DNA of 64,000 nucleotides. It comes from Acidimicrobiia bacterium. Lineage in GTDB: Bacteria; Actinomycetota; Acidimicrobiia; Spongiisociales; ZC4RG35. Each line of letters starts with the position of its first letter. Position 1 is the first letter of the stretch. The stretch is from positions 34,201 through 98,200 of the forward strand of contig JBGTHP010000039.1 of NCBI GenBank assembly GCA_041746105.1. The letters run 5' to 3'. The notes under the pieces were generated by a model that searched no databases, had not been told where the DNA came from, and saw only the letters and a program-made list of their open reading frames with translations. Position numbers and translations under genes: made by a program. Of the stretch, positions 1,964 to 22,314 are shown piece by piece.

Positions 1964-2953
1964 ATGGCCGATCTGGCGGAACTGGTACCCATCCCCCGAG
2001 TGTGGGAACGAATGGAGCGCGTCGAACAGCGCCTGTTCGAGGCGACCACGTCAGGCGACGAACGGCTGACCGAGATCTCACAACATCTTCTCAACGCGGG
2101 CGGAAAGAGATACCGGCCGGTGCTTGCCCTCCTCGCCGCCGAGCTGGGCCCGAGTCCGGAACACCACCCGGTCGAAGCGGCAGTAGCGGTGGAACTGATC
2201 CATGTCGGGAGCCTCTATCACGACGACGTGATCGACGAGGCGGACACCCGTCGCGGTGCGGCCAGCGCCAACATCAACTGGACCAACACGGTCGCGATCC
2301 TGGCCGGTGACTTCCTCATGGCTCGCGCCTCGGAGACGGCGGCAACCCACCTCAGCCAAGAATCGGTCAGGCTTCTGGCAGCAACCTATGCCGAGTTGGT
2401 CGAAGGCCAGACCCGCGAACTCGGACTCGACTACGACCTCGACCACTCGGTGGGCGCCTACGAACACGTCATCTATCAAAAAACCGCCAGCCTGATTCGG
2501 ACCTCCGCCCGGCTGGGGGCGATTGCGGCCGGGGCTTCCGATCCAACGGTCGAAGCCGTGAGTACCTGGGCGGCAGAGGTGGGGATGGTGTTCCAACTCG
2601 CCGACGATGTCCTCGACCTCATCGCAACCTCGGACGTGCTCGGGAAACCCGCTGGATCGGACATCAGGGAAGGCAAATTCACCCTGCCCGTCCTGCTGGC
2701 GCTGGCAGGCCCGGAAAGCGAACGCGTGAGAAAGCTCCTCAAAGAGCCCATCCCCTACCGCGACGCCGCGGTCGATGAGGTCATCGAGATCGTACGCGGC
2801 GGCGGGTATTCGGGTGGCGCCTTGGCCGCCGCCCGTCAGCGGCTCGAAGTGGCTCGAAGCGCGATCGCCGGATTGGGAACACCCGAGGTGAGAGCCGTTT
2901 TTGAGCGAGTTGGATCGTATCTGGTTGACCGAGTCGAAGCGCTCGAATCCTGA
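1964..2953 (+). CDS. trans-polyprenyl diphosphate synthase (GGPP/heptaprenyl-type, IdsA family)
   Basis: 329 aa. First aspartate-rich motif is LYHDDVIDEADTRRG and second is FQLADDVLD. KRYRP and GKPAGSDIREGKFTLP are conserved. Confidence 0.85.
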   Translation: MADLAELVPIPRVWERMERVEQRLFEATTSGDERLTEISQHLLNAGGKRYRPVLALLAAELGPSPEHHPVEAAVAVELIHVGSLYHDDVIDEADTRRGAASANINWTNTVAILAGDFLMARASETAATHLSQESVRLLAATYAELVEGQTRELGLDYDLDHSVGAYEHVIYQKTASLIRTSARLGAIAAGASDPTVEAVSTWAAEVGMVFQLADDVLDLIATSDVLGKPAGSDIREGKFTLPVLLALAGPESERVRKLLKEPIPYRDAAVDEVIEIVRGGGYSGGALAAARQRLEVARSAIAGLGTPEVRAVFERVGSYLVDRVEALES

Positions 2954-2996
2954 GAAACAACTCCAGTCAGAGGGTTGAGGGGCCGAAACCCTCAGC

Positions 2997-4439
2997 ATGG
3001 ACCTTCAGTCCTTCTTCAGAGATGCAGTAGCCGCACAAATCAAGGAACTCGAGGTCGCGATCGACCTTCCTCCCGATGCTCCCGAGGTTGCCAACGCCCG
3101 GCGCGTAGCGCATTCGCTCAAAGGTTCCGGCACCACGTATGGATACCCGGAGATATCGCAGGCGGCCGCCGTCACCGAACAAGCCTCAGATGCCAGTTTC
3201 AGCAAGTCGGTGGAGTCGCTGATCGAGGTGTTGACCAAAGCGATCGAAACGGACTCCAAGGTGGCGGTGCTCGTGGTCGACGACGATCCGGTTTTCGGCG
3301 AGATGCTGGTGGCCAAGTTGTCGAGTCCCCTCCTCAGGGTTGAACACGTCGGCTCGCGGGCCGAGGCCGAATCCCATCTGGACAATTCCCAGCCACAGGT
3401 GATCGTGCTGGACCTCTTCCTTCCCGACGGAGATGGCCGCGATCTCCTCGCCCAACTGGTCCAATCCCGTCCCGGTCTCACTGTCATCGCCACCAGTGCC
3501 ACGGACTCGAACGAGCTCCGGGATGCGGTCATGGCCGCCGGCGCCACTGCGTTTCTCACCAAACCGGTGAACATCAGGGCCCTCACCGATCTCGTCGAAC
3601 AGCTTCTCCGCCAGCGGGCAGAGGGACGCCACACCCGCGACCCGCTCATCGAGGTCTATGACGACCTTCGACGGACCGCTCCGACCGTGACCGTCGCATC
3701 AATCGTCCCCGAATTGCACGGGCCGGGCGGGCTCGATCGGCGCAACGACTCCAGTGTTCTCGACGACATGGTCAACGCCCTCGACGAACTGTTGCCGCCC
3801 GACATCGCAATCGGAAGGTGGTCGCCCACCGAACTGATCGGATTCACCGATGGAACGTCCCAAGAACTCCTCGAGACTCTCGATCGGGCTCGGCTCCGGC
3901 TGAGGAACCGGCTACAGCAGCCGGACGGTTCCGTCGCAACCTTCTCCGCCGGGGTTGCGCCCGGCAGCTCGAGCCTGCTCGATTCGTACGGACACGCCCG
4001 GGAGGCCGCCAGTGCGGCCGCGGCCGGCGGCGGCGACAGAGTTGTTCTCGCCAGCTCCACGGGCAGGGCCAACACCGTCCTCCTCGCGGAAGACGATCCA
4101 CTGACCGCGGCACTGGTGGTCCACCGTCTCGAGCGAGAAAGCCTCGACGTCACACACTGCACCGATGGCCTCACCGCCATCGAAATCGCATCCCAGCGAG
4201 AGTTCGGACTGATCATTCTCGACATCCAAATGCCGGGTCTCGACGGTTTCGGGGTGCTGGCGGAGCTCAGACAACGACCGGCCTATTTGGAGACTCCCAT
4301 CATCATCCTGACGGCGGTCGGCAGCGAACGTGATGTCGTGCGCGGTTTCGAACTCGGGTGTGACGACTATGTGCTCAAGCCTTTCAGCCCGGCCGAACTG
4401 ACGGCCAGGCTCAGGCGATTCACCAGGAAGGCCGTATGA
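2997..4439 (+). CDS. hybrid signalling protein: HPt - REC - degenerate GGDEF - REC
   Basis: 480 aa. N-terminal HPt motif AHSLKGSGTTYG. REC1 has VLVVDDDP...VLDLFLPDGDG...TKP. The middle domain aligns to GGDEF but carries RWSPTELIGF where RYGGEEF is expected, and keeps the C-terminal VATFSAGVA...GGGDRVV signature. REC2 has VLLAEDDP...ILDIQMPGLDG...KPF. Confidence 0.7.
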   Translation: MDLQSFFRDAVAAQIKELEVAIDLPPDAPEVANARRVAHSLKGSGTTYGYPEISQAAAVTEQASDASFSKSVESLIEVLTKAIETDSKVAVLVVDDDPVFGEMLVAKLSSPLLRVEHVGSRAEAESHLDNSQPQVIVLDLFLPDGDGRDLLAQLVQSRPGLTVIATSATDSNELRDAVMAAGATAFLTKPVNIRALTDLVEQLLRQRAEGRHTRDPLIEVYDDLRRTAPTVTVASIVPELHGPGGLDRRNDSSVLDDMVNALDELLPPDIAIGRWSPTELIGFTDGTSQELLETLDRARLRLRNRLQQPDGSVATFSAGVAPGSSSLLDSYGHAREAASAAAAGGGDRVVLASSTGRANTVLLAEDDPLTAALVVHRLERESLDVTHCTDGLTAIEIASQREFGLIILDIQMPGLDGFGVLAELRQRPAYLETPIIILTAVGSERDVVRGFELGCDDYVLKPFSPAELTARLRRFTRKAV

Positions 4440-4872: not shown

Positions 4873-5520
4873 GTGGCAGGGTCCGCCCTGGTTGAAGCCA
4901 AGACGAGTCGCAACGGGAGCTACCATGCCGGTTCTGCGCGTGCGAGCTCGCTCAGTCGCCACGACTATCGGACTCCGTCGAAATTCACGGCGGCATTCGT
5001 CAGGGAATTCGACGACTTCCACAAAGAATTCATGGCAGTGCTGTCACAGCGCTACACCCGCGAACTCAAATCGCAGATAACTATCGAGCACCTCAGCACC
5101 GAGCAGCTCACGTATGACGCCTACGTCCGCTCCATGCCCAATCCAAGCCTTCTCAACATCTTCGAGTTGGCCCCGCTTCCAGGTCGCGTCGTCTTCGAGA
5201 TGAGCCCCCAACTCGGGTTGGTTCTGGTCGATCGCCTCTTGGGTGGCCGCCCTGGCCGACCGGTCTCGCCGCGACCGCCGACCGTTCTCGAACAGACTCT
5301 GCTGACCACTCTCACCACCCACCCGATGGCAGCTTTCCAGGCCGCCCTCAGCCTGTTGGTCGACGTCGACCCACAGTTGGTACACACCGAGTTGAATCCT
5401 CAGTTCGCCCACGCCGCCATTGGCGGCCCTGGCACGTTTTCCGGGAGCCGTGTCATCTGTCTCCTCAACGCCCTCGTATTGGGTGCCGAAGAAGCCACGC
5501 ATCGCCATGAGCGCCTCTGA
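4873..5520 (+). CDS. fliM: flagellar motor switch protein FliM, N-terminal and middle (CheC-like) domains only. The C-terminal FliN/SpoA domain is missing.
   Basis: YDAYVRSMPNPSLLNIFELAPLPGRVVFEMSPQLGLVLVDRLLGG aligns with the E. coli FliM segment YHEFARNLPVPTNLNLIHLKPLRGTGLVVFSPSLVFIAVDNLFGG. The ORF stops at 5520 where a complete FliM would carry ~90 more residues. The 3' end overlaps the fliA region 4 on the opposite strand. Confidence 0.65.
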   Translation: MAGSALVEAKTSRNGSYHAGSARASSLSRHDYRTPSKFTAAFVREFDDFHKEFMAVLSQRYTRELKSQITIEHLSTEQLTYDAYVRSMPNPSLLNIFELAPLPGRVVFEMSPQLGLVLVDRLLGGRPGRPVSPRPPTVLEQTLLTTLTTHPMAAFQAALSLLVDVDPQLVHTELNPQFAHAAIGGPGTFSGSRVICLLNALVLGAEEATHRHERL

Positions 5521-6184
5521 ACGGATCTGGGAGACCCTGGCCTCGGTGAGTCCGAGATCGCCCGCAATGTCTTGAAGGAGTTCCCCTTCGAGGTAGTACC
5601 GAGAGATGACTTCGGCCTGGACCGCCGGCAGATTGCGAATCGCCTCTACCAATGTGCCTCGCATCTCGCGCTGCTCAAGGGCGAACTCCGCAAGAAAATC
5701 CGCACGCTGCTCTTCGACCCGGTCGACGAGAGGGGAATCCTCGCCCTCGCTCTGCTGGTCCAGATGAAGCAGGGTCGAAGTAGTTGCCTGAGCCTGACGC
5801 CTGCTCAGTTCGGCGATGCTGATTCCGAGGAAAGATGCAAAGTTCTTCTGCAACCGGGGTCTTGCCATGCTGCTCTTCCAGACCGGACTGGGCCTGCTGG
5901 ATGTCACGAATATTGCGCCGGACCGAACGGCTCGCCCAATCTCGGGTCCTCGTGCTGTCGATGATGGCGCCGCGAATACGAATTGCGGCGTGCCGTGCAA
6001 AAGGGATGCCGGACTCCGGATCAAAGCGACGGCTGGCCTCGACCAAGCCGAGAGCGCCTGCGTTCCACAACTCGGCTCGGTCCACGTGACGTGGATAACG
6101 GGCCGAGACCTCGGCGACAATGTGGCCGACGAGATCCATGTTGTCGGTCACAAGCTGATTCTGTTGGTGGCTTGTGAGGCTCAT
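5461..6184 (-). pseudogene. fliA: flagellar sigma factor FliA/WhiG (sigma-28 class). A 1-nt indel at ~5838-5840 splits regions 2 and 3-4, and there is no in-frame stop after region 4.
   Basis: Frame A (ORF 5675..6184) carries region 2, LVGHIVAEVSARYP...ELWNAGALGLVEASRRFDPESGIPFARHAAIRIRGAIIDSTRTRDW. The frame of ORF 5044..6120 carries regions 3-4, LGISIAELS...LPAVQAEVISRYYLEGELLQDIAGDLGLTEARVSQIRSEALMAMRG. The join occurs at GAAGAACTT-T-GCATC, where one extra T in a T3 run breaks EEL/ASFLGI. The region-4 frame then stays open to 5044, fully antisense to fliM. Confidence 0.7.
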
Positions 6185-6389
6185 GTTTCCCTACTCCTAC
6201 GATGCGGTTTCGATTCGCTGTGGTAATCGGGAAACCGGCGATCAATCCTTGAGGACCATTTAGAAATAGTCATTGGGTTGTCGGGGGAAACGCTTAACCA
6301 CCCTTTCGACGGGCCGACCACGCCGGCCGCGGTGCACGATCTACCAATTCACGACTTGACCGAAGCCGATTGGGGCGGACAGGAGAATC

Positions 6390-6833
6390 GTGACCATCAC
6401 ACACAATGCTCTCGCCGCACCCACGATCGACAAGCTGGTGGCTTTGCTCAACGGCGAAAGAAAAGTCCTCGAGCAACTGCTTTTCAGGATCACCGAATTC
6501 GAGTTGTTGCTGGCCGGCGCAGAACACCGGTTTGTCGCGAAGTCGCTCGACGAAATCGACCACGCCGAGAACGATCTCGCCATGTATGAGTTGAGCAGGG
6601 CGATTGTGGTCGAGACGCTGTTGCCACCCAACGTCCCACCAACGGCTACATCCCTCTTGGACATCTGTGCCGATCACCCCCAGTTGATCCGGGCGCTCGA
6701 TGACCTCAAAAGACTCGTTGCCGCCATCGAGCACGGACGCGAGCGGTGTCGCCGGCTCTCGCAGGAAAGAGTGGAAAAAGTCGGCACGGCCGAGCGCCGC
6801 CTCCAGCATCAGGGATTCGGCCCCTACGGCTGA
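6390..6833 (+). CDS. FlgN-like flagellar export chaperone family protein, paralog of the gene at 11193..11705
   Basis: 147 aa with GTG start and an AGGAGA Shine-Dalgarno. Shares the [12 protein letters not shown] motif (compare ERRLLEQLLFKL in the second copy). Helical and acidic. Divergently placed from fliA. Confidence 0.4.
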
Positions 6834-7072
6834 TTGGCGTCACGACGTCTGAGGACCATCCCTCTGATCGCCTCCGCCCCGTCCACCGCATCTACCACCG
6901 CGGCCTGGTTTTCAGCAGTCACCTGTCGATAAATCTCGGCGCGATGAACCGCCAGAGAACGCGGTGCATCGATCCCAATTCGGATCTGACCACCACGAAC
7001 CTCGAGCACCGTGACCACGACGTCGTTACCGATGACGATGGCCTCGCCGACCTTCCGTGTCAATACGAGCAT
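6824..7072 (-). CDS. csrA: carbon storage regulator / translational repressor CsrA
   Basis: [54 protein letters not shown] start at 7070-7072, internal to the longer ORF 6824..7279. Confidence 0.9.
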
Positions 7073-7161
7073 CCGGCAACGATACATGGAGGACAGGGCC
7101 CCCCGGCGGATAACGTTGGACCGATCAAACCGGCAACGGTTACGCGAGAGTTGGCGAACAG

Positions 7162-8301
7162 CTACATATCGGTTTCGGTGACAGTGGATGCGACTCGGGG
7201 GTCGATGCCGAAAATGTGGACGAGGTCGGCCGGTTCTCGGATCGGGCCCGTTGGAAGATGTCGCGAGTCCCAGGCGCATGCCGCCGCAATCAGCTGCGCC
7301 TCAGGAGTGCTGGCCCGGCCCATGTAGCCGGATTCGCGCAGTAGCGGACTGTCGGCGATGCCGCGTTGCCTCGGCAGAGTGGCCACCATCCTGACGAGTT
7401 CATCGTTGTGATTCACTCCGCTGCACCGGAACTCGGTACCGCCGAAAGTGAGCGAATGCAACCACGACGCGGCCTCAAGGCGCGACCGGTCCTTTTCCGG
7501 GAGGTGAATCGAGTGTTGACGCACGATCTCCACCATCCGTTCGGTGTGACCGGGGTTTCGCCCATCTCGCTCGGCCGAGATGATCCTGGCCTGCGCTTCG
7601 AGTTGGAGGGCGGCCCCGTGTTCCCGAAACCACGACCTGATCGCTTCTGTGTAGAGCGCTGCTGCCGCTATCGCTGGCAGGAGAGCCCACGAGGTGGTTG
7701 CGGGCACTGCCCATGCGAATGCAACCGCACCAGCGGATACGCCGATATCGCGGACCTGAGCCTTCCAGTAGTCGGCGCCTCCGGGCCAACGGTCATAGAG
7801 CAACCTCACGGAGATGGCGGCGAGCGGATAGTTGACCAGGACGCCGATCGCAGTCACTGCGGCCGCTCCCATCAGAACCAGCACCAGGTTTTTTGCGACC
7901 ACATCGACGGTCGGGGCGGCAGATATCAGTGCACCAACCACCAGCCATCGCGTCGACAGAATCCCATCGTTGAGAGCACAGAGCCTCCAGCCCTGCCGCC
8001 TGACCGCGGCCCACGCGATCAGTTTGGCCTGTATGACCAGCACGATCGGCGCCAACGGTCCGGCGACGAAACCGGTCGCCATCATGATCGGCGTGGAAGG
8101 GTCCAAAACAAATCGGTTCGGCTCCCTGACCATCAACAGCGACGACCCGACAGCCACCAACGTCAATCCGATGATTGCAAAAAACGTCGCAGGAGAAGGG
8201 ACCACAACCGAGATCGATCCGCCAATACCAGCGGCGACACCGCTGAATAACACGCCCAAAAGCGCGAACACAACGGGCCGCCGCTCAGTCGATGCGGTCA
8301 T
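7162..8301 (-). CDS. polytopic membrane protein (~7 TM) with a C-terminal degenerate HD/HD-GYP-like domain (7TMR-HD-like)
   Basis: 379 aa. Hydrophobic N-terminal ~270 aa. The C-terminal segment [35 protein letters not shown] resembles H-x-ERV...AALLHDIGK of HD domains but has HS instead of HD. Lies between fliW and csrA. Confidence 0.5.
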
Positions 8302-16708: not shown

Positions 16709-17038
16709 CTACCACACCTCCTCTGGCTCGGCGGTCACCTCTTCCCAGCGGGCGTCAAGGCTTTCCTTCATCTCCCGATATCCGTCACGTCGCTTCCAGA
16801 ACTTCGTTTTCCAAACCCGAAATCGACGCCGTTCGATCTCTGAACCTAGATCTGGGGCTTCGTGCGCCCGGTTCCGACGAACCTCGGGGAGAGAGATTTC
16901 GTCGGGATCTTCGACGGTTGTCAAGAGTTGGTGGGCGGCGTGGCGCACCTGGCGATGCTGCCTCTGCCGATCCTCACGCGAAGGTCGCTCGTCGTAACCT
17001 GGGATGGACTTGCGGTTCGTGCGGGAGCGTTTTGCCAT
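16709..17038 (-). CDS. conserved hypothetical basic protein
   Basis: 109 aa ORF beginning MAKRSRTNRKSIPGYDERPSRE. No recognisable motif. Confidence 0.3.
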   Translation of the reverse strand: MAKRSRTNRKSIPGYDERPSREDRQRQHRQVRHAAHQLLTTVEDPDEISLPEVRRNRAHEAPDLGSEIERRRFRVWKTKFWKRRDGYREMKESLDARWEEVTAEPEEVW

Positions 17039-17188: not shown

Positions 17189-18142
17189 TTAGAAGAGGAA
17201 AGGCAGAAAACGGCGTCGGACTCGCTCGCGATACTCGAAATACCCCGGAAACATCAGGGTCAGGGCTCGTTCCTCGAGCAGGGACTTTCTGTAAAGAACA
17301 AGGACCAGGGCCCCGAGTGGAACGGCCGGCCAAACACTTCCGGCCAGCACAGTCATCGCCAAGCTGCCCAATATCACACCCCCGTAGATCGGATGGCGAA
17401 CCAGGCGGAAAGGGCCACGGACAACCATCGCCGCACCCGATCTCGGTTCAGGCAGGGCCGACAGGTTGCTGCCGAGGACGATCACGGCACCTATGACGAG
17501 GGCGGAGCCAAACGCCGCCACCGCCACACCAATACCGCTTCGGATCGGAGTCAATGGCCTTTCGAGAAGCAGGAATGCAGTGACCGCAACTGCGCCGATC
17601 AGCACCAGCTGAGCCATGACCAGGATCGGCCCTAGCGCACCGATCGATGGAGGCCGAACCTCCCAGTCGCCAATGAAACGGAACACCCCACCCGAAGGAA
17701 CCTCTTGGATGGCGGCCTCGGCGGTCGTCCCATCACCCACAGGGGCAGTTGGCCACACTTCGATCAGTGGCTCGAGCACAAATCGTCGCCTGCTCGCACG
17801 GGGATGGGGAATCTGAACCGTGGCCGTTTCTACCGGGTCCCCTCGATGGGCGATGATATCCAGATCGAGGGTGCGGGGACCCCACTTCTCGTTGCGCACC
17901 CGACCGTGCTCGATCTCGATTTCGATGAGTTCTTCGAGCAGGGACTCGGCATCCAGATCCGTTTCGAGGACCGCGACCGCGTTCAAGTAGGGCCCTTGAT
18001 CCGGGCCGCCAACCGGGTCGGTCTCAAACAAAGAAGAGACCCCCACCACCGGGGATATTCGTCGCAGATGAGCGAGGCCGGAGCGCATGTACTCCAGGCG
18101 GTCGCCGAGGTTTGATCCGAGACCGATCGCGACCCGAGTCAT
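17189..18142 (-). CDS. folK: HPPK (FolK) fused to a C-terminal ICMT/PEMT-like membrane methyltransferase domain
   Basis: N-terminal ~155 aa is FolK: MTRVAIGLGSNLGDR...SSLFETDPVGGPDQGPYLNAVAVLETDL...WGPRTLDLDII. The C-terminal ~150 aa holds 4 TM segments and the motif RGPFRLVRHPIYGGVILG...LLEERALTLMFPGYFEYRERVRRRF, typical of isoprenylcysteine carboxyl / phospholipid methyltransferases. ATG at 18140-18142 overlaps the folB stop. Confidence 0.75.
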   Translation of the reverse strand: MTRVAIGLGSNLGDRLEYMRSGLAHLRRISPVVGVSSLFETDPVGGPDQGPYLNAVAVLETDLDAESLLEELIEIEIEHGRVRNEKWGPRTLDLDIIAHRGDPVETATVQIPHPRASRRRFVLEPLIEVWPTAPVGDGTTAEAAIQEVPSGGVFRFIGDWEVRPPSIGALGPILVMAQLVLIGAVAVTAFLLLERPLTPIRSGIGVAVAAFGSALVIGAVIVLGSNLSALPEPRSGAAMVVRGPFRLVRHPIYGGVILGSLAMTVLAGSVWPAVPLGALVLVLYRKSLLEERALTLMFPGYFEYRERVRRRFLPFLF

Positions 18143-18498
18143 CGCCGGCGGTGTATTGAGACCGATACGTCCCCGAAGGCGACCGGAATGGGTGCTGATG
18201 GTTTGTGCACGGTCACTTCGACTGCCTCGATCCGGCGATCGGCCAAAACCAGGTCGGCGACACGACCGGCAACTCGTTCGATCAACGACCATTGCTCGCC
18301 GGCCACGAGATCGTGAATCGATTGCGCCAGGGCTCCATAGTCGACGGTGTCGGTGAGCGTATCGGAAGCGCCGGCCTTGGACAGGTCCAGGGCGACCTCG
18401 ACATCCACCAGGAACAGCTGCCCTGCGGTTCGCTCTTCCGGGAGCACTCCGTGACGAGCAAAAACCTCGATTCGCTCGATCCTGATCCGATCGGTCAC
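18139..18498 (-). CDS. folB: dihydroneopterin aldolase
   Basis: MTDRIRIERIEVFARHGVLPEERTAGQLFLVDVEV. 119 aa. Confidence 0.9.
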   Translation of the reverse strand: MTDRIRIERIEVFARHGVLPEERTAGQLFLVDVEVALDLSKAGASDTLTDTVDYGALAQSIHDLVAGEQWSLIERVAGRVADLVLADRRIEAVEVTVHKPSAPIPVAFGDVSVSIHRRR

Positions 18499-18977
18499 TG
18501 GGGTGGTTTGGACAGCAGTGCTCTCGCCTTCGGTCCGAGCGGTCGTCCCAGGATCTCTTGGATAACCGCCGACGCCAAGATCTGGTCCTCGACCAAACCA
18601 GAGGCGATCAGGTATCCGCCCAAAAGTCCGGCCAAGTCGTCGTCGATGATCTCACGATGCAATAGCACCCTGGCCGTTTCGTCCGCAAGAGCCCGGTCCA
18701 GCACCTCGTAGAGTTGTTTGGCGTCCTTGGATGTGACGCTCGGGCCCATGGGCACCGCAAAACAACTGAGCCCGGCCGTTCTGTATGCCTGCAGGTTCTG
18801 GTTGCCGGCGAGAAGGGTGATGACCGTGGTGATCTTGGCTTCTCTCGTCAACCAGTTGATCTCCTCTTCGCGCCGAACCCGTCGGTGTTGGAATCCGTAT
18901 CCCCCGATTCTTTCGGACACGGCCAGTCGATTTGCGATGACCCATGTGAATTCGCGTGGTTTTAGACCTGTGATCAT
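18495..18977 (-). CDS. hypothetical protein between folP and folB
   Basis: ORF starting [20 protein letters not shown]. No catalytic motif identified. Start chosen at the ATG that abuts the folP stop. Confidence 0.4.
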   Translation of the reverse strand: MITGLKPREFTWVIANRLAVSERIGGYGFQHRRVRREEEINWLTREAKITTVITLLAGNQNLQAYRTAGLSCFAVPMGPSVTSKDAKQLYEVLDRALADETARVLLHREIIDDDLAGLLGGYLIASGLVEDQILASAVIQEILGRPLGPKARALLSKPPQ

Positions 18978-19804
18978 GTTCTTCCTTGCACGATAGCCCA
19001 CGCCAGACGGACGGCTTCCAGGGTGGCGCGTACATCGTGGGCCCTCACCAGGCGTACCCCACGCTCGACCGCCAAAGCGGCCAAGGTGGCAGAGGCACGA
19101 TCGCGGTCTCCGGGATCGGGAAGATCGAGGATCCGACCCAAAAACCCCTTCCGCGAAACACCGATCATCAGCGGCCTGCCGCTCCCCAGCTCGCCGAGGC
19201 GGTCCAATAGCTCGAGGTTGTGCTCGATCGTTTTCCCGAAGCCGATCCCGGGATCTACAACGATCGAGTGTTCGGAAAGCCCTTCATCGACCAGTCGCTG
19301 GGCACTCTGGTCCAGGTAGTCGCGCACCTCGGTCACGACATCGCCGTACACGGGATTGTCCTGCATGGTCTGTGGATCGCCTTTTTTGTGCATGACGACA
19401 ACACCGGCACCGTGCTCGATCGCGATCGAGCGCATCGCCGGATCAGCCATCCCGGAGATGTCGTTGATGACGACCGCACCCTCTTGACACGCGGCTTGCG
19501 CAACTTCCGGCTTGGTCGTATCCACCGACACCAACACGCCGGCATCGACCAAGCCCACGACCACCGGCAAGATGCGACCGAGCTCGTCGGCGACATCGAC
19601 CCCACGAGCGCCCGGTCGGCTCGATTCACCGCCAACATCCACAATCGCGGCTCCGGCCTCGACCAATGCGAGCCCGTGACCGATCGCGGCGGATGCCGAC
19701 GCCAGCATTCCACCGTCGGAGAAAGAGTCTGGTGTCATATTGATGATCCCCATGATCCGGGGGATGTCCAGCGAGAGCTCCGCGGATCGGAGCCTCCAGA
19801 TCAC
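18974..19804 (-). CDS. folP: dihydropteroate synthase
   Basis: [16 protein letters not shown]. 276 aa. Confidence 0.9.
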
Positions 19805-20376
19805 TTCGTGCCCTGGAGGAGCCGCATGGCCTCATTTCGTGTTGCCGGATTTCGCCGAATGATGCCCCGCACGGCAGAAGTCACGGTTGTCGCACCCGGT
19901 TTGCGCACTCCCCGCATCGACATGCACAGGTGCTCCGCCTCGATCACGACGATCGCCCCTTTGGGGGCGAGCACTCTTTCGAGCTCATCGGCGATCTGGG
20001 TCGTCAGCCTTTCCTGGACCTGGAGCCGCCTGGCGAAGGTGTCAACCAGCCTCGCCACCTTGGACAAACCGGTGATCGCACCCTCGTCGTTGGGGATATA
20101 TCCGACATGGGCTCGACCCAGAAAGGGCACGAGGTGATGTTCGCACAACGAGTACAGGGGGATGTCTCGAACCATCACCAACTCGTCATAACTCGACTCG
20201 AACTGGACCTGGAGATGCTGGTCGGCGTCTTCTGACATCCCAGAAAGCACTTCGGCATAAAAACGGGCAACCCGATCAGGAGTATCGGCAAGCCCGTCGC
20301 GGTCGGGATCCTCTCCAACCGCGATCAGAATCTGACGCACGGCAGCAGCGATGGCATCGTGATCGATCGTCGACAT
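19801..20376 (-). CDS. folE: GTP cyclohydrolase I
   Basis: [17 protein letters not shown] motif. Confidence 0.9.
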
Positions 20377-20391
20377 TGAACGGAACGCTAC

Positions 20392-22314
20392 TCAGTGACG
20401 GGACGGCTCGGTCTGCTCAGCAGCAGCAATTCCACCGTTGCTCTGGGCAGATTCACCGGGCAGTTGAATCCGCAAGGAGCCGCTGTTGACATGCTCCCAT
20501 TTCGGGACGTCAAAGAGCAGCTCGGCCAGTTCGTGGCGATCGATCGTCTCGCGTTCGAGCAGCGCTTCGGCCAGTCGGTCGAGCGAGCCGCGGTGGGTGC
20601 TCAGGATCTGACGGGCCTCTTCGTGAGCTGCCGTAATCAACGCCCTGACCTCTTCGTCGATCTTCGAGGCGACATCGTCCGAATAGTCGGCCTGGCGGTT
20701 GTAGTCACGTCCAAGGAAGACCTCGCCACTGGATTGACCATATTTCATCGGTCCCAGCAGGTCGCTCATCCCGTACTCCATCACCATTCTGCGAGCAGTA
20801 CGTGTTGCCTTTTCGATGTCATTGGAGGCCCCGGTCGAAGGATCCGAGAACACGATCTCCTCTGCAGTACGTCCGCCGAGCGCATAGGCAAGTTCATCGA
20901 CCATCTCGCTTCGACGCTTGTAATACCGGTCTTGAGTCGGCAGGGCCAGCGTGTACCCGCCGGCTCGCCCGCGAGGAATGATGGTGACCTTGTGGATGGG
21001 ATCGACGTTGGGCAGGGCAAACCCCACCAGAGCGTGACCGCCCTCGTGATAAGCGGTGATACGGCGCTCTTCCTCGGTGACGATTCGTGATCTTCTTTCA
21101 GGTCCTGCGATCACTCTGTCGATCGCCTCGTTGAGTTCATCCATCCCGATCTGCGTCTTGCGGCGGCGCACCGTCAACAACGCAGCCTCGTTGATGAGGT
21201 TGGCCAGATCGGCACCGGTGAATCCTGGAGTCCCTCGCGCCACCGACTCGAGATCGATGTCGTTGCCAAGAGGTTTTCCCTTGGCATGGACATCGAGAAT
21301 TGCGTGACGTCCCTTGATGTCGGGGCCGTCGATGGTGATCTGGCGATCGAAACGTCCTGGTCTCAAAAGAGCTGGATCGAGAATGTCTGGTCGGTTGGTG
21401 GCAGCCATGACGATGACACCCACATTTGCCTCGAAGCCATCGAGCTCGACCAATAGCTGGTTGAGCGTCTGCTCTCGTTCGTCATGCCCTCCGCCCAGGC
21501 CGGCGCCACGGTGACGGCCAACCGCGTCGATTTCGTCGATGAAAATAATGGCCGGAGCCGATGCCTTCGCCTGTTCGAACAAATCTCGAACACGAGACGC
21601 TCCGACACCTACGAACATCTCGACAAAATCCGATCCGGAGATCGAGTAGAAGGGAACACCGGCCTCGCCGGCAACCGCCTTCGCCAACAGGGTCTTGCCG
21701 GTTCCGGGGGGACCAAACAGCAACACACCCTTGGGAATCTTGGCTCCCATCGCCCGGTACTTGTCGGGGTGCTTGAGAAAATCTCTGATCTCTTCTAGCT
21801 CTTCGATTGCCTCTTCGAGACCCGCCACTTCCTTGAACGTGACTTTGGGTTGGTCCTTTGACACCGTCTTGGCCTTGGCTTTGCCGAACTGCATCACCCG
21901 GTTTCCAGAACCCTGCATCTGGGTGAAAAAGAACACCATCAGACCGATCAAGATCAGCCACGGGAGAAGCTGCAACAAATAGTCGGCAAAACCCGGCGGC
22001 TGGTTGTCGACTCGATATTCCACGCCTGCGGCATCGAGGCGATCTTCGACGGATTCGCCAAAACGGTCACCGATCTCCACGAAGAAATCGACTCCATCGG
22101 CCGCCGCCGACGAATCGACGTAACGGCCCTCAACTCGTTCCGAGCGGTTCAGAATTGTGACCGACTCGACCTTGTCAGCCTCGATTTGTTCGTAGAACTG
22201 GTTCAGTGTCAGCTCTTCTGGACCCGCAACCTGACCAAGCCATTGTGAAGCGGACACCACGAGCACACTGATGACAAGGCCATACACGAGCAACGTTCTA
22301 AGAGATCGATTCAC
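20392..22314 (-). CDS. ftsH: ATP-dependent zinc metalloprotease FtsH (copy 1, syntenic with folE/hpt)
   Basis: 640 aa. [45 protein letters not shown] zinc site. Confidence 0.95.

Follow-up and report, generated by a model that had tools for sequence, protein, structure and literature searches.

Folate synthesis is an antibiotic-target pathway that is usually treated as purely cytosolic. The locus described here raises the question of why one enzyme of that pathway, 6-hydroxymethyl-7,8-dihydropterin pyrophosphokinase (HPPK, product of folK), should be made as a single polypeptide with an integral membrane methyltransferase. The locus lies in a 64,000-nucleotide stretch of DNA from an Acidimicrobiia bacterium (assembly GCA_041746105.1, contig JBGTHP010000039.1, positions 34,201 to 98,200), hereafter the window, in which positions are numbered from its first nucleotide. 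The fusion gene, called folK::MT here, occupies 17189-18142 on the minus strand and consists of 317 codons and a TAA stop (17189-17191), with no internal stop codon. In a mechanical list of open reading frames (ORFs) the frame begins farther upstream, at 18292, but since every homologue starts with MTR(V/Y)A..., the true start is at 18142, where the ATG (18142-18140) shares the sequence ATGA with the folB stop. The limits assigned to the gene in a preliminary description of the window were thus right, the ORF being uninterrupted and its start matching those of the homologues. We lean towards a reading in which the product combines HPPK, anchored at the membrane, with a methyltransferase that is active on a membrane-embedded amphiphile.

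The HPPK domain comprises residues 1-160 (17663-18142, minus strand) and ends with an invariant tryptophan, W160, which corresponds to the C-terminal Trp of Escherichia coli HPPK. Residues 6-130 match Pfam HPPK (PF01288) with E=1.4e-35 and 122.7 bits (cut-off 25.7), the NCBIfam folK equivalog TIGR01498 scores 130.3 bits against a cut-off of 54.1, and residues 1-160 match solved HPPKs at the sequence level with E=3e-27. In a Foldseek comparison with the PDB, E. coli HPPK (4m5g) was matched with E=2e-12, a target TM-score of 0.92 and a root-mean-square deviation of 1.6 Å over 159 columns. Residues N11, Q49, N54, E76, R81, R90, D93, D95, H113, R119 and F121 do not vary among 120 fused sequences and presumably correspond to E. 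coli N10, Q50, N55, E77, R82, R92, D95, D97, H115, R121 and F123, respectively; these E. coli positions are the ones mutated in the HPPK PDB entries that were found as structural matches. Judged from its sequence, the N-terminal half is a complete HPPK with all of the catalytic residues present, and HPPK activity is predicted. It shares the fold, length, catalytic residues and operon position of the monofunctional enzymes (E. coli 1hka/1q0n and Yersinia pestis 2qx0). The canonical HPPK domain noted in the preliminary description, there put at about 155 residues, is confirmed by Pfam, TIGR01498, fold and residues.

A variable linker of about nine residues (residues 161-169; 17636-17662, minus strand) leads into the methyltransferase domain (residues 170-317; 17192-17635, minus strand). 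Mean pairwise identity across the fusions is 21% in the linker, 56% in the HPPK and 42% in the methyltransferase domain. Residues 204-295 exceed the Pfam cut-offs for both the phosphatidylethanolamine N-methyltransferase family (PEMT, PF04191; 33.0 bits, cut-off 25) and the isoprenylcysteine carboxyl methyltransferase family (ICMT, PF04140; 27.0 bits, cut-off 24). The NCBIfam ICMT equivalog NF040696 scores 29 bits against a cut-off of 160, so the domain is not an ICMT (Ste14) orthologue. A family profile, built from the fused domain and 34 free-standing relatives, was compared with the PDB and matched the plant protein AtTam46 (8xku_G, E=5.9e-20, the best-scoring solved relative), the Methanosarcina ICMT homologue (Ma-ICMT, 4a2n, E=4.6e-16), Tribolium ICMT (Tc-ICMT, 5vg9, E=1e-12) and steroid 5-alpha-reductase (7c83, E=6e-6). 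The motifs RHPxY and EE are in register with the same motifs of 4a2n, 5vg9 and 8xku_G. In the fusion they are RHPIY (residues 249-253; 17384-17398, minus strand), in a cytoplasmic loop before helix 3 and with a predicted cofactor-binding His, and EE (residues 290-291; 17270-17275, minus strand), with the invariant K286 ahead of it and a predicted cofactor-binding Glu. The equivalent His contacts S-adenosylmethionine (SAM) or S-adenosylhomocysteine (SAH) in RhlM, Ma-MTase and Tc-ICMT and is proposed to hold SAM, while the equivalent Glu contacts SAM in RhlM; the His and Glu together are said to hold SAM/SAH across the three enzymes (PMC11069360). Because the motifs are in register with these SAM-holding residues, the domain is assigned to the ICMT/PEMT superfamily with its cofactor site intact, as a complete four-helix domain.

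An AlphaFold model of the whole fusion protein has a mean predicted local distance difference test score (pLDDT) of 92.6 and a predicted TM-score (pTM) of 0.86. In the model, membrane helix 1 spans residues 170-191 (17570-17635; hydropathy peak 173-191) and bears Q178, helix 2 spans residues 199-226 (17465-17548; hydropathy peak 204-222), helix 3 residues 251-267 (17342-17392; AlphaFold and hydropathy), and helix 4 residues 273-297 (17252-17326; hydropathy peak 265-283), the last continuing as a cytoplasmic helix and followed by a short C-terminal helix; all are encoded on the minus strand. The C-terminal tail contains on average 7.1 Lys and Arg residues and the loop that connects helices 2 and 3 contains 2.9, against 0.2 and 0.1 in the other two loops. 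The positive-inside rule therefore places the RHPxY loop and the EE tail in the cytoplasm together with the HPPK; the predicted product is a polytopic membrane protein that is N-in and whose two active regions are both at the cytoplasmic face. The four transmembrane helices, the RHPIY and C-terminal motifs and the ICMT/PEMT-like character claimed from the letters alone all hold: about four helices are supported by model and hydropathy, both motifs are present, and the family call rests on the two Pfam matches and on the profile matches to ICMT structures.

Could the fusion be an artefact, arising from a missed stop, a frameshift or a chimeric assembly of two genes? In a search of 5.8 billion proteins the best 120 matches were all of 314-326 residues, covered 94-100% of the query at 44-100% identity and carried both Pfam domains; both domains were found in 146 of the 401 proteins gathered. 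The sources of the best matches are independent assemblies (NCBI, JGI, ENA and Logan), and the same gene and gene order occur on a contig of 3.48 Mb. Fusions with this gene order were found in species-representative genomes (L001-L004) and on metagenome contigs (L087 and L119). It is true that two of the four species-representative loci look damaged: in L004 (6001-6983) the fusion frame is broken into three ORFs, and in L003 (6001-7146) the C-terminus is extended and out of register, damage that looks like sequencing error. Against this, more than 140 independent sequences from different pipelines share the same 314-326-residue frame, the position of the junction is conserved, and no separate methyltransferase gene adjoins folK in the loci sampled. 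An artefact is hardly credible on these grounds and was rejected, which also answers the worry about a missed stop.

The surroundings of the two kinds of gene were surveyed in two scans, one for folK in species-representative genomes and one for the methyltransferase profile in metagenomes, each a sample of 80 loci rather than a census. Fusions made up four of the 80 folK loci (L001-L004) and two of the 80 methyltransferase loci, in keeping with the earlier view that the architecture is not a standard one. In none of the 76 non-fusion loci was there a separate methyltransferase gene at a distance of up to 6 kb from folK, and folK was beside none of the 78 free-standing methyltransferase genes; neither sample thus contained a split stage in which the two are adjacent genes. 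Where relatives encode the two parts separately, the parts were never neighbours in these loci, and the methyltransferase stands free elsewhere.

All of the fusion proteins with a taxon name are from Acidimicrobiia. The L003 and L004 records, both metagenome-assembled genomes, are labelled 'uncultured Acidobacteriota bacterium'; their gene order (ftsH, folP, a gene of 160 codons, folK::MT, panC-like, lysS-like and clpC-like) is that of L001 and L002, and the labels look doubtful because this order is of the Acidimicrobiia type. The public annotation of the fusion proteins is just 'HPPK', while truncated C-terminal pieces on short contigs are named 'Ste14'. What is new here is the combination of two known kinds of domain, and not a new kind of system, in sequences that are already public under a partial name.

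In a single distance tree of HPPK domains, built without support values, one clade, with 63 leaves, takes in 61 of the 64 fused sequences. Of the non-fused leaves inside it, L005 is cut by the contig end at residue 148, and L006 is a true stand-alone HPPK, 66% identical to a fused one, whose chain ends directly behind the conserved Trp. An earlier, smaller HPPK tree gave a bootstrap of 1/20, for a different and larger grouping that contained many non-fused sequences. The neighbour-joining tree of the methyltransferase domains has no resolution, the fusions appearing in several small groups with their common ancestor at the root. Since the fused HPPK domains form essentially one clade, the phylogeny points to a fusion that arose once and was then retained down to about 42% HPPK identity, with at least one loss.

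A further fusion-like protein, P0140 (257 residues), matches the HPPK profile only at positions 3-76 and apparently lacks the catalytic core GRVR...WGPRTLDLD...PH. Other folK frames also carry extra C-terminal sequence. In L034 (Gaiellales; 5210-6640, 476 residues) an extension of about 330 residues was judged by eye to be NadA (quinolinate synthase)-like, and L008 (Opitutaceae; 6001-6849) and L038 (Coriobacteriaceae; 5992-6843) have about 130 extra residues each. None of the three extensions matches the methyltransferase profile, and each may be a real fusion or read-through by the ORF caller.

With the fusion accepted as real, the next question is whether the membrane domain still works as an enzyme. 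It might serve only as an anchor or scaffold that holds HPPK at the membrane or in a folate assembly, its chemistry being irrelevant. The short linker, which runs about nine residues past the C-terminal Trp of HPPK, would suit such a role, and L006 manages without the domain although it lies in the fused clade. A further parallel comes from Actinomycetes-type loci, in 12 of which folK is directly followed by a gene for DUF3180 (PF11377; Pfam E values down to 1e-30), a four-helix membrane protein which we take to be the Rv3605c family. The 12 include L011 (6495-6977), L025 (6510-6974), L076 (6510-6995), L077 (5831-6313) and eight more. The start of the DUF3180 gene and the stop of folK overlap by 4 nt in at least four of the 12, and the two genes are in different frames in the four loci that were inspected by hand. 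Two sister groups thus pair HPPK with a four-helix protein, and DUF3180 resembles the fused domain in being a small four-helix membrane protein in the same position after folK; it differs in being a separate gene without methyltransferase motifs and without a detectable sequence relationship. That DUF3180 might be a diverged relative of the C-terminal domain was considered and rejected, as the fused domain has no PF11377 match and the hhalign probability, calculated with eight DUF3180 sequences, was 2%. A literature search found no relevant paper on DUF3180, the single match to Rv3605c being unrelated.

The pattern of conservation tells against a mere anchor. Residues Q178, G224, P231, R249, H250, P251, Y253, K286, E290, E291 and Y304 are invariant in the 120 fusions, and within the domain the identity is 59% in the motif loop and 54% in the C-terminal tail and only about 31% in the membrane helices. 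Conservation of the domain is thus highest in the cofactor motifs, which are invariant, and lowest in the helices by which the protein would be anchored; cofactor motifs are not what a mere anchor would retain, which weakens the case for anchoring as the only role. DUF3180 has no detectable homology to the domain, and the other Acidimicrobiia sampled have no membrane partner after folK, neither DUF3180 nor a methyltransferase. We therefore consider a purely structural role rather unlikely. The independent pairing of HPPK with a small membrane protein in two sister groups is nevertheless suggestive, by analogy, of HPPK working at the membrane. The tethering of HPPK to the membrane proposed in the preliminary description likewise follows from the predicted anatomy and has indirect support from the folK-DUF3180 pairs of Actinomycetes.

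What the methyltransferase might act on was approached through its free-standing relatives. A search with the domain alone against 1.84 billion cluster representatives gave 8625 relatives. Among the best 150, the majority stand free, with lengths of 145-165 residues and identities of 37-46%, and about ten represent fusion clusters. The domain is present in full in the free-standing proteins, with its N-terminal W-V-x-x-Q motif (the Gln is Q178 in the fusion), which means that a complete methyltransferase has been joined about ten residues past the end of HPPK. In 34 of them the equivalents of R249, H250, P251, Y253, K286 and E291 are invariant, that of E290 is kept in at least 90%, and the Gln of the N-terminal motif is invariant as it is in the fusions. 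A comparison of invariant positions between the 120 fusions and the 34 relatives found no residue that sets the fused domain apart, and the fused copies probably catalyse the same reaction as their free-standing relatives for this reason.

The closest free-standing group consists of proteins of 153 residues (P0121, P0305 and P0335) named as Acidimicrobiia or Actinobacteria. They are about 45% identical to the fused domain over the full length and have W-V-x-x-Q and all of the invariant residues, but are encoded by separate genes that lie between clpB and mscL/dnaK-grpE-dnaJ, away from folate genes. The 153-residue methyltransferase genes of L082-L086 are at 7001-7462 (4222-4683 in L086), in a clpB/mscL/dnaK-grpE-dnaJ-merR neighbourhood, and in four of these five loci, three of which are near-identical, the next gene encodes an ATPase of about 500 residues (AAA+AAA_lid_3) on the opposite strand. 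An ORF of 857 residues in the window was considered as clpB and rejected, being topA. In the metagenome locus L107 a free-standing gene of the methyltransferase family directly follows one for a bifunctional PanC-cytidylate kinase (2139-3989). Three relatives, P0154 (405 residues), P0195 (428 residues) and P0238 (286 residues), have two tandem methyltransferase domains each.

The solved and functionally described members of the superfamily place the fused domain among several families without identifying it with any one of them. ICMT (the Ste14 family; Ma-MTase 4a2n and Tribolium 5v7p/5vg9) belongs to the same superfamily and has RHPxY and EE on the cytoplasmic face, but has five to eight helices against four in the shorter fused domain. 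To our knowledge bacteria have no CaaX-prenylated substrates of ICMT. The PEMT/Opi3-type phospholipid N-methyltransferases (PF04191) give the best Pfam match and have a similar EE motif; PF04191 is a broad family of mostly uncharacterised bacterial proteins, and the match itself does not show that phosphatidylethanolamine is the substrate. In size and four-helix layout the fused domain is also similar to PEMT. The plant protein TAM46 (At5g59500; 8xku chain G) shares the RHPIY and EE motifs and has a very similar C-terminal tail. It is a protein of unknown activity, with 396 residues and seven helices, that is located in the chloroplast envelope and belongs to the Ycf2-FtsHi import motor (PMC13533914). 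The presence of TAM46 in an FtsH-like motor, of an ATPase gene next to the free-standing genes and of ftsH just ahead of the fusion operon is probably a coincidence.

Acceptors are defined for two cases only among those that turned up: BpsB/DquB, which O-methylates alkylpyrones (PMC9827899), and RhlM, which methylates the carboxyl group of rhamnolipids (PMC11069360). According to the RhlM paper, the bacterial functions of the superfamily are otherwise unexplored (PMC11069360). Like the fused domain, these are small bacterial membrane enzymes of the superfamily with the same His and Glu proposed for SAM; they methylate amphiphiles. Their genes adjoin those for synthesis of their substrates, whereas the fusion gene has no lipid-synthesis gene nearby, the comparison being one of descriptions and not of sequences. 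By analogy with these enzymes, and presumably with the free-standing relatives, we infer that the acceptor of the fused domain is an amphiphile.

In the reading that we favour, folK, the last gene of the folate operon, would have been joined in frame, once and in an Acidimicrobiia lineage, to a full copy of a gene for a small, membrane-embedded methyltransferase. The HPPK would carry out its normal step (hydroxymethyl-dihydropterin + ATP giving the diphosphate + AMP) at the inner face of the membrane, while the C-terminal domain would be an active SAM-dependent methyltransferase acting on a membrane-embedded amphiphile, for instance a phenolic lipid or the head group or carboxyl of a lipid. 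Chemical channelling from one active site to the other would not be expected, and the benefit of the fusion would be co-expression, the placement of HPPK at the membrane, or both. Each half keeps every residue that its family needs, and from this both look functional. Some observations weigh against this account. Retention of the fusion to about 42% HPPK identity argues for a functional benefit that is not specified in it; a co-adapted interface would be compatible, too, with the AlphaFold model, which confidently treats the protein as a single body; and the neighbours of the free-standing relatives offer no clue to the substrate, those of the more distant ones being heterogeneous.

In a closer link, the domain would methylate a pterin- or folate-related molecule made at the membrane face or act as a SAM/SAH sensor that tunes HPPK; in a variant, it would be a PEMT-like phospholipid N-methyltransferase, a heavy consumer of SAM that is co-expressed with folate synthesis. 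Gene fusions often mark functional links, this one has been retained over a deep clade, both active sites are predicted on the cytoplasmic side, separated by only a few residues, AlphaFold treats the two domains as one rigid body, and the Pfam score for PEMT is slightly above that for ICMT. Set against these points, the family occurs beside folK only as this fusion in the loci sampled, its nearest free-standing relatives are in the clpB/mscL/dnaK setting, and the invariant residues are those of the free-standing proteins, with no sign of a new specificity. L006, within the clade, has an HPPK without the domain, HPPK carries other extra C-terminal sequence in L034, L008 and L038, and the known acceptors of the superfamily are lipids or lipidated proteins and not soluble pterins (PMC9827899, PMC11069360). 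Coupling of this kind seems to us decidedly unlikely, and the link between folate and SAM metabolism raised in the preliminary description did not gain from the survey of loci, from the comparison of residues or from L006; a direct coupling to either metabolism is possible but unsupported.

HPPK fusions are already known, and the present one differs from them in its partner. The known cases are FolB-FolK and HPPK-dihydropteroate synthase proteins (PMC1971073), with structures 2cg8 for the former and 3mco, 7mpy and 2bmb for the latter. They resemble the present one in that HPPK is joined to another enzyme, but their partners are soluble and of the same pathway, while the partner here is an integral membrane methyltransferase without a known folate role; it is this partner that leads to the prediction of a membrane-bound HPPK. 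No paper describing HPPK joined to a membrane methyltransferase was found in a literature search, and a 2007 comparative survey of folate genes mentions no such fusion (PMC1971073).

The consequences depend on whether the two halves cooperate. If they do not, which we judge the likelier case, the gene is a lineage-specific fusion labelled 'HPPK', a name that hides a membrane enzyme and is worth correcting. If they do, the fusion would point to bacterial folate synthesis having a step at the membrane or a control point that depends on SAM, and would give a first functional clue to the small ICMT/PEMT-like methyltransferases of bacteria, a very large family. That folK is repeatedly paired with a small membrane protein, by fusion here and with DUF3180 in Actinomycetes, is a hypothesis that could readily be tested in Mycobacterium or Streptomyces. 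A broader proposal is that HPPK is membrane-associated across Actinomycetota, through translational coupling to DUF3180 or fusion to the ICMT/PEMT-like domain, and that the fused methyltransferase is tied to the pathway, either by methylating a pterin-/folate-derived or lipid-linked product at the membrane face or by reporting SAM/SAH status to HPPK. This is a long shot; a true tie to the pathway would mean a new feedback or branch between folate synthesis and the use of methyl groups.

The fusion gene is the last of an operon on the minus strand in the order folE, folP, a gene of 160 codons, folB and folK::MT. GTP cyclohydrolase I (folE, 19801-20376; Pfam GTP_cyclohydroI, E=2e-75) starts 15 nt downstream of ftsH (20392-22314) and is followed by dihydropteroate synthase (folP, 18974-19804; Pfam Pterin_bind, E=1e-76), the 160-codon gene (18495-18977), which is in the operon and outside the fusion, and dihydroneopterin aldolase (folB, 18139-18498; Pfam FolB, E=5e-38). 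All four junctions overlap by 4 nt and read, in operon order, GTGA, ATGA, GTGA and ATGA. The folate setting and translational coupling described earlier were thus correct, but the list folE-folP-folB-folK missed the conserved gene between folP and folB. Downstream of folK::MT are a conserved ORF of 109 codons, a DUF2520 gene, panC, coaX and lysS. The operon layout is conserved in the other fusion loci, and we take it to be that of the ftsH-to-lysS region of Mycobacterium.

The 109-residue ORF (MAKRSRTNRKSIPGY...VWKTKFWKRR...; 16709-17038, minus strand) is very basic and lies where folK::MT appears to be followed by a gap of 572 bp. Neither Pfam nor NCBIfam gave a match for it, and it is found at the same place in L001, L002, L004 and the non-fusion locus L006, a conservation that marks it as a real small gene.

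The product of the 160-codon gene likewise has no Pfam or NCBIfam match. Its 1193 homologues are 64-92% identical, making it better conserved than its neighbours, and it occupies the same place in 21 loci of both fused and non-fused Acidimicrobiia; none was detected in Actinomycetes-type loci. Its AlphaFold model (pLDDT 78) was assigned by Foldseek to the dual-specificity/tyrosine phosphatase fold, with query TM-scores of about 0.55-0.68 and a match to Tk-PTP (5z59) at E=8e-7. At the position of the P-loop expected by analogy with HCxxGxxR it reads VHREIIDDxLAG and has no catalytic Cys. For many bacteria, Mycobacterium among them, the gene for the dihydroneopterin-triphosphate phosphatase step is listed as missing (PMC1971073). 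The 160-residue protein is a candidate for this step, or else a pseudophosphatase, and its gene may be more interesting than the fusion itself.

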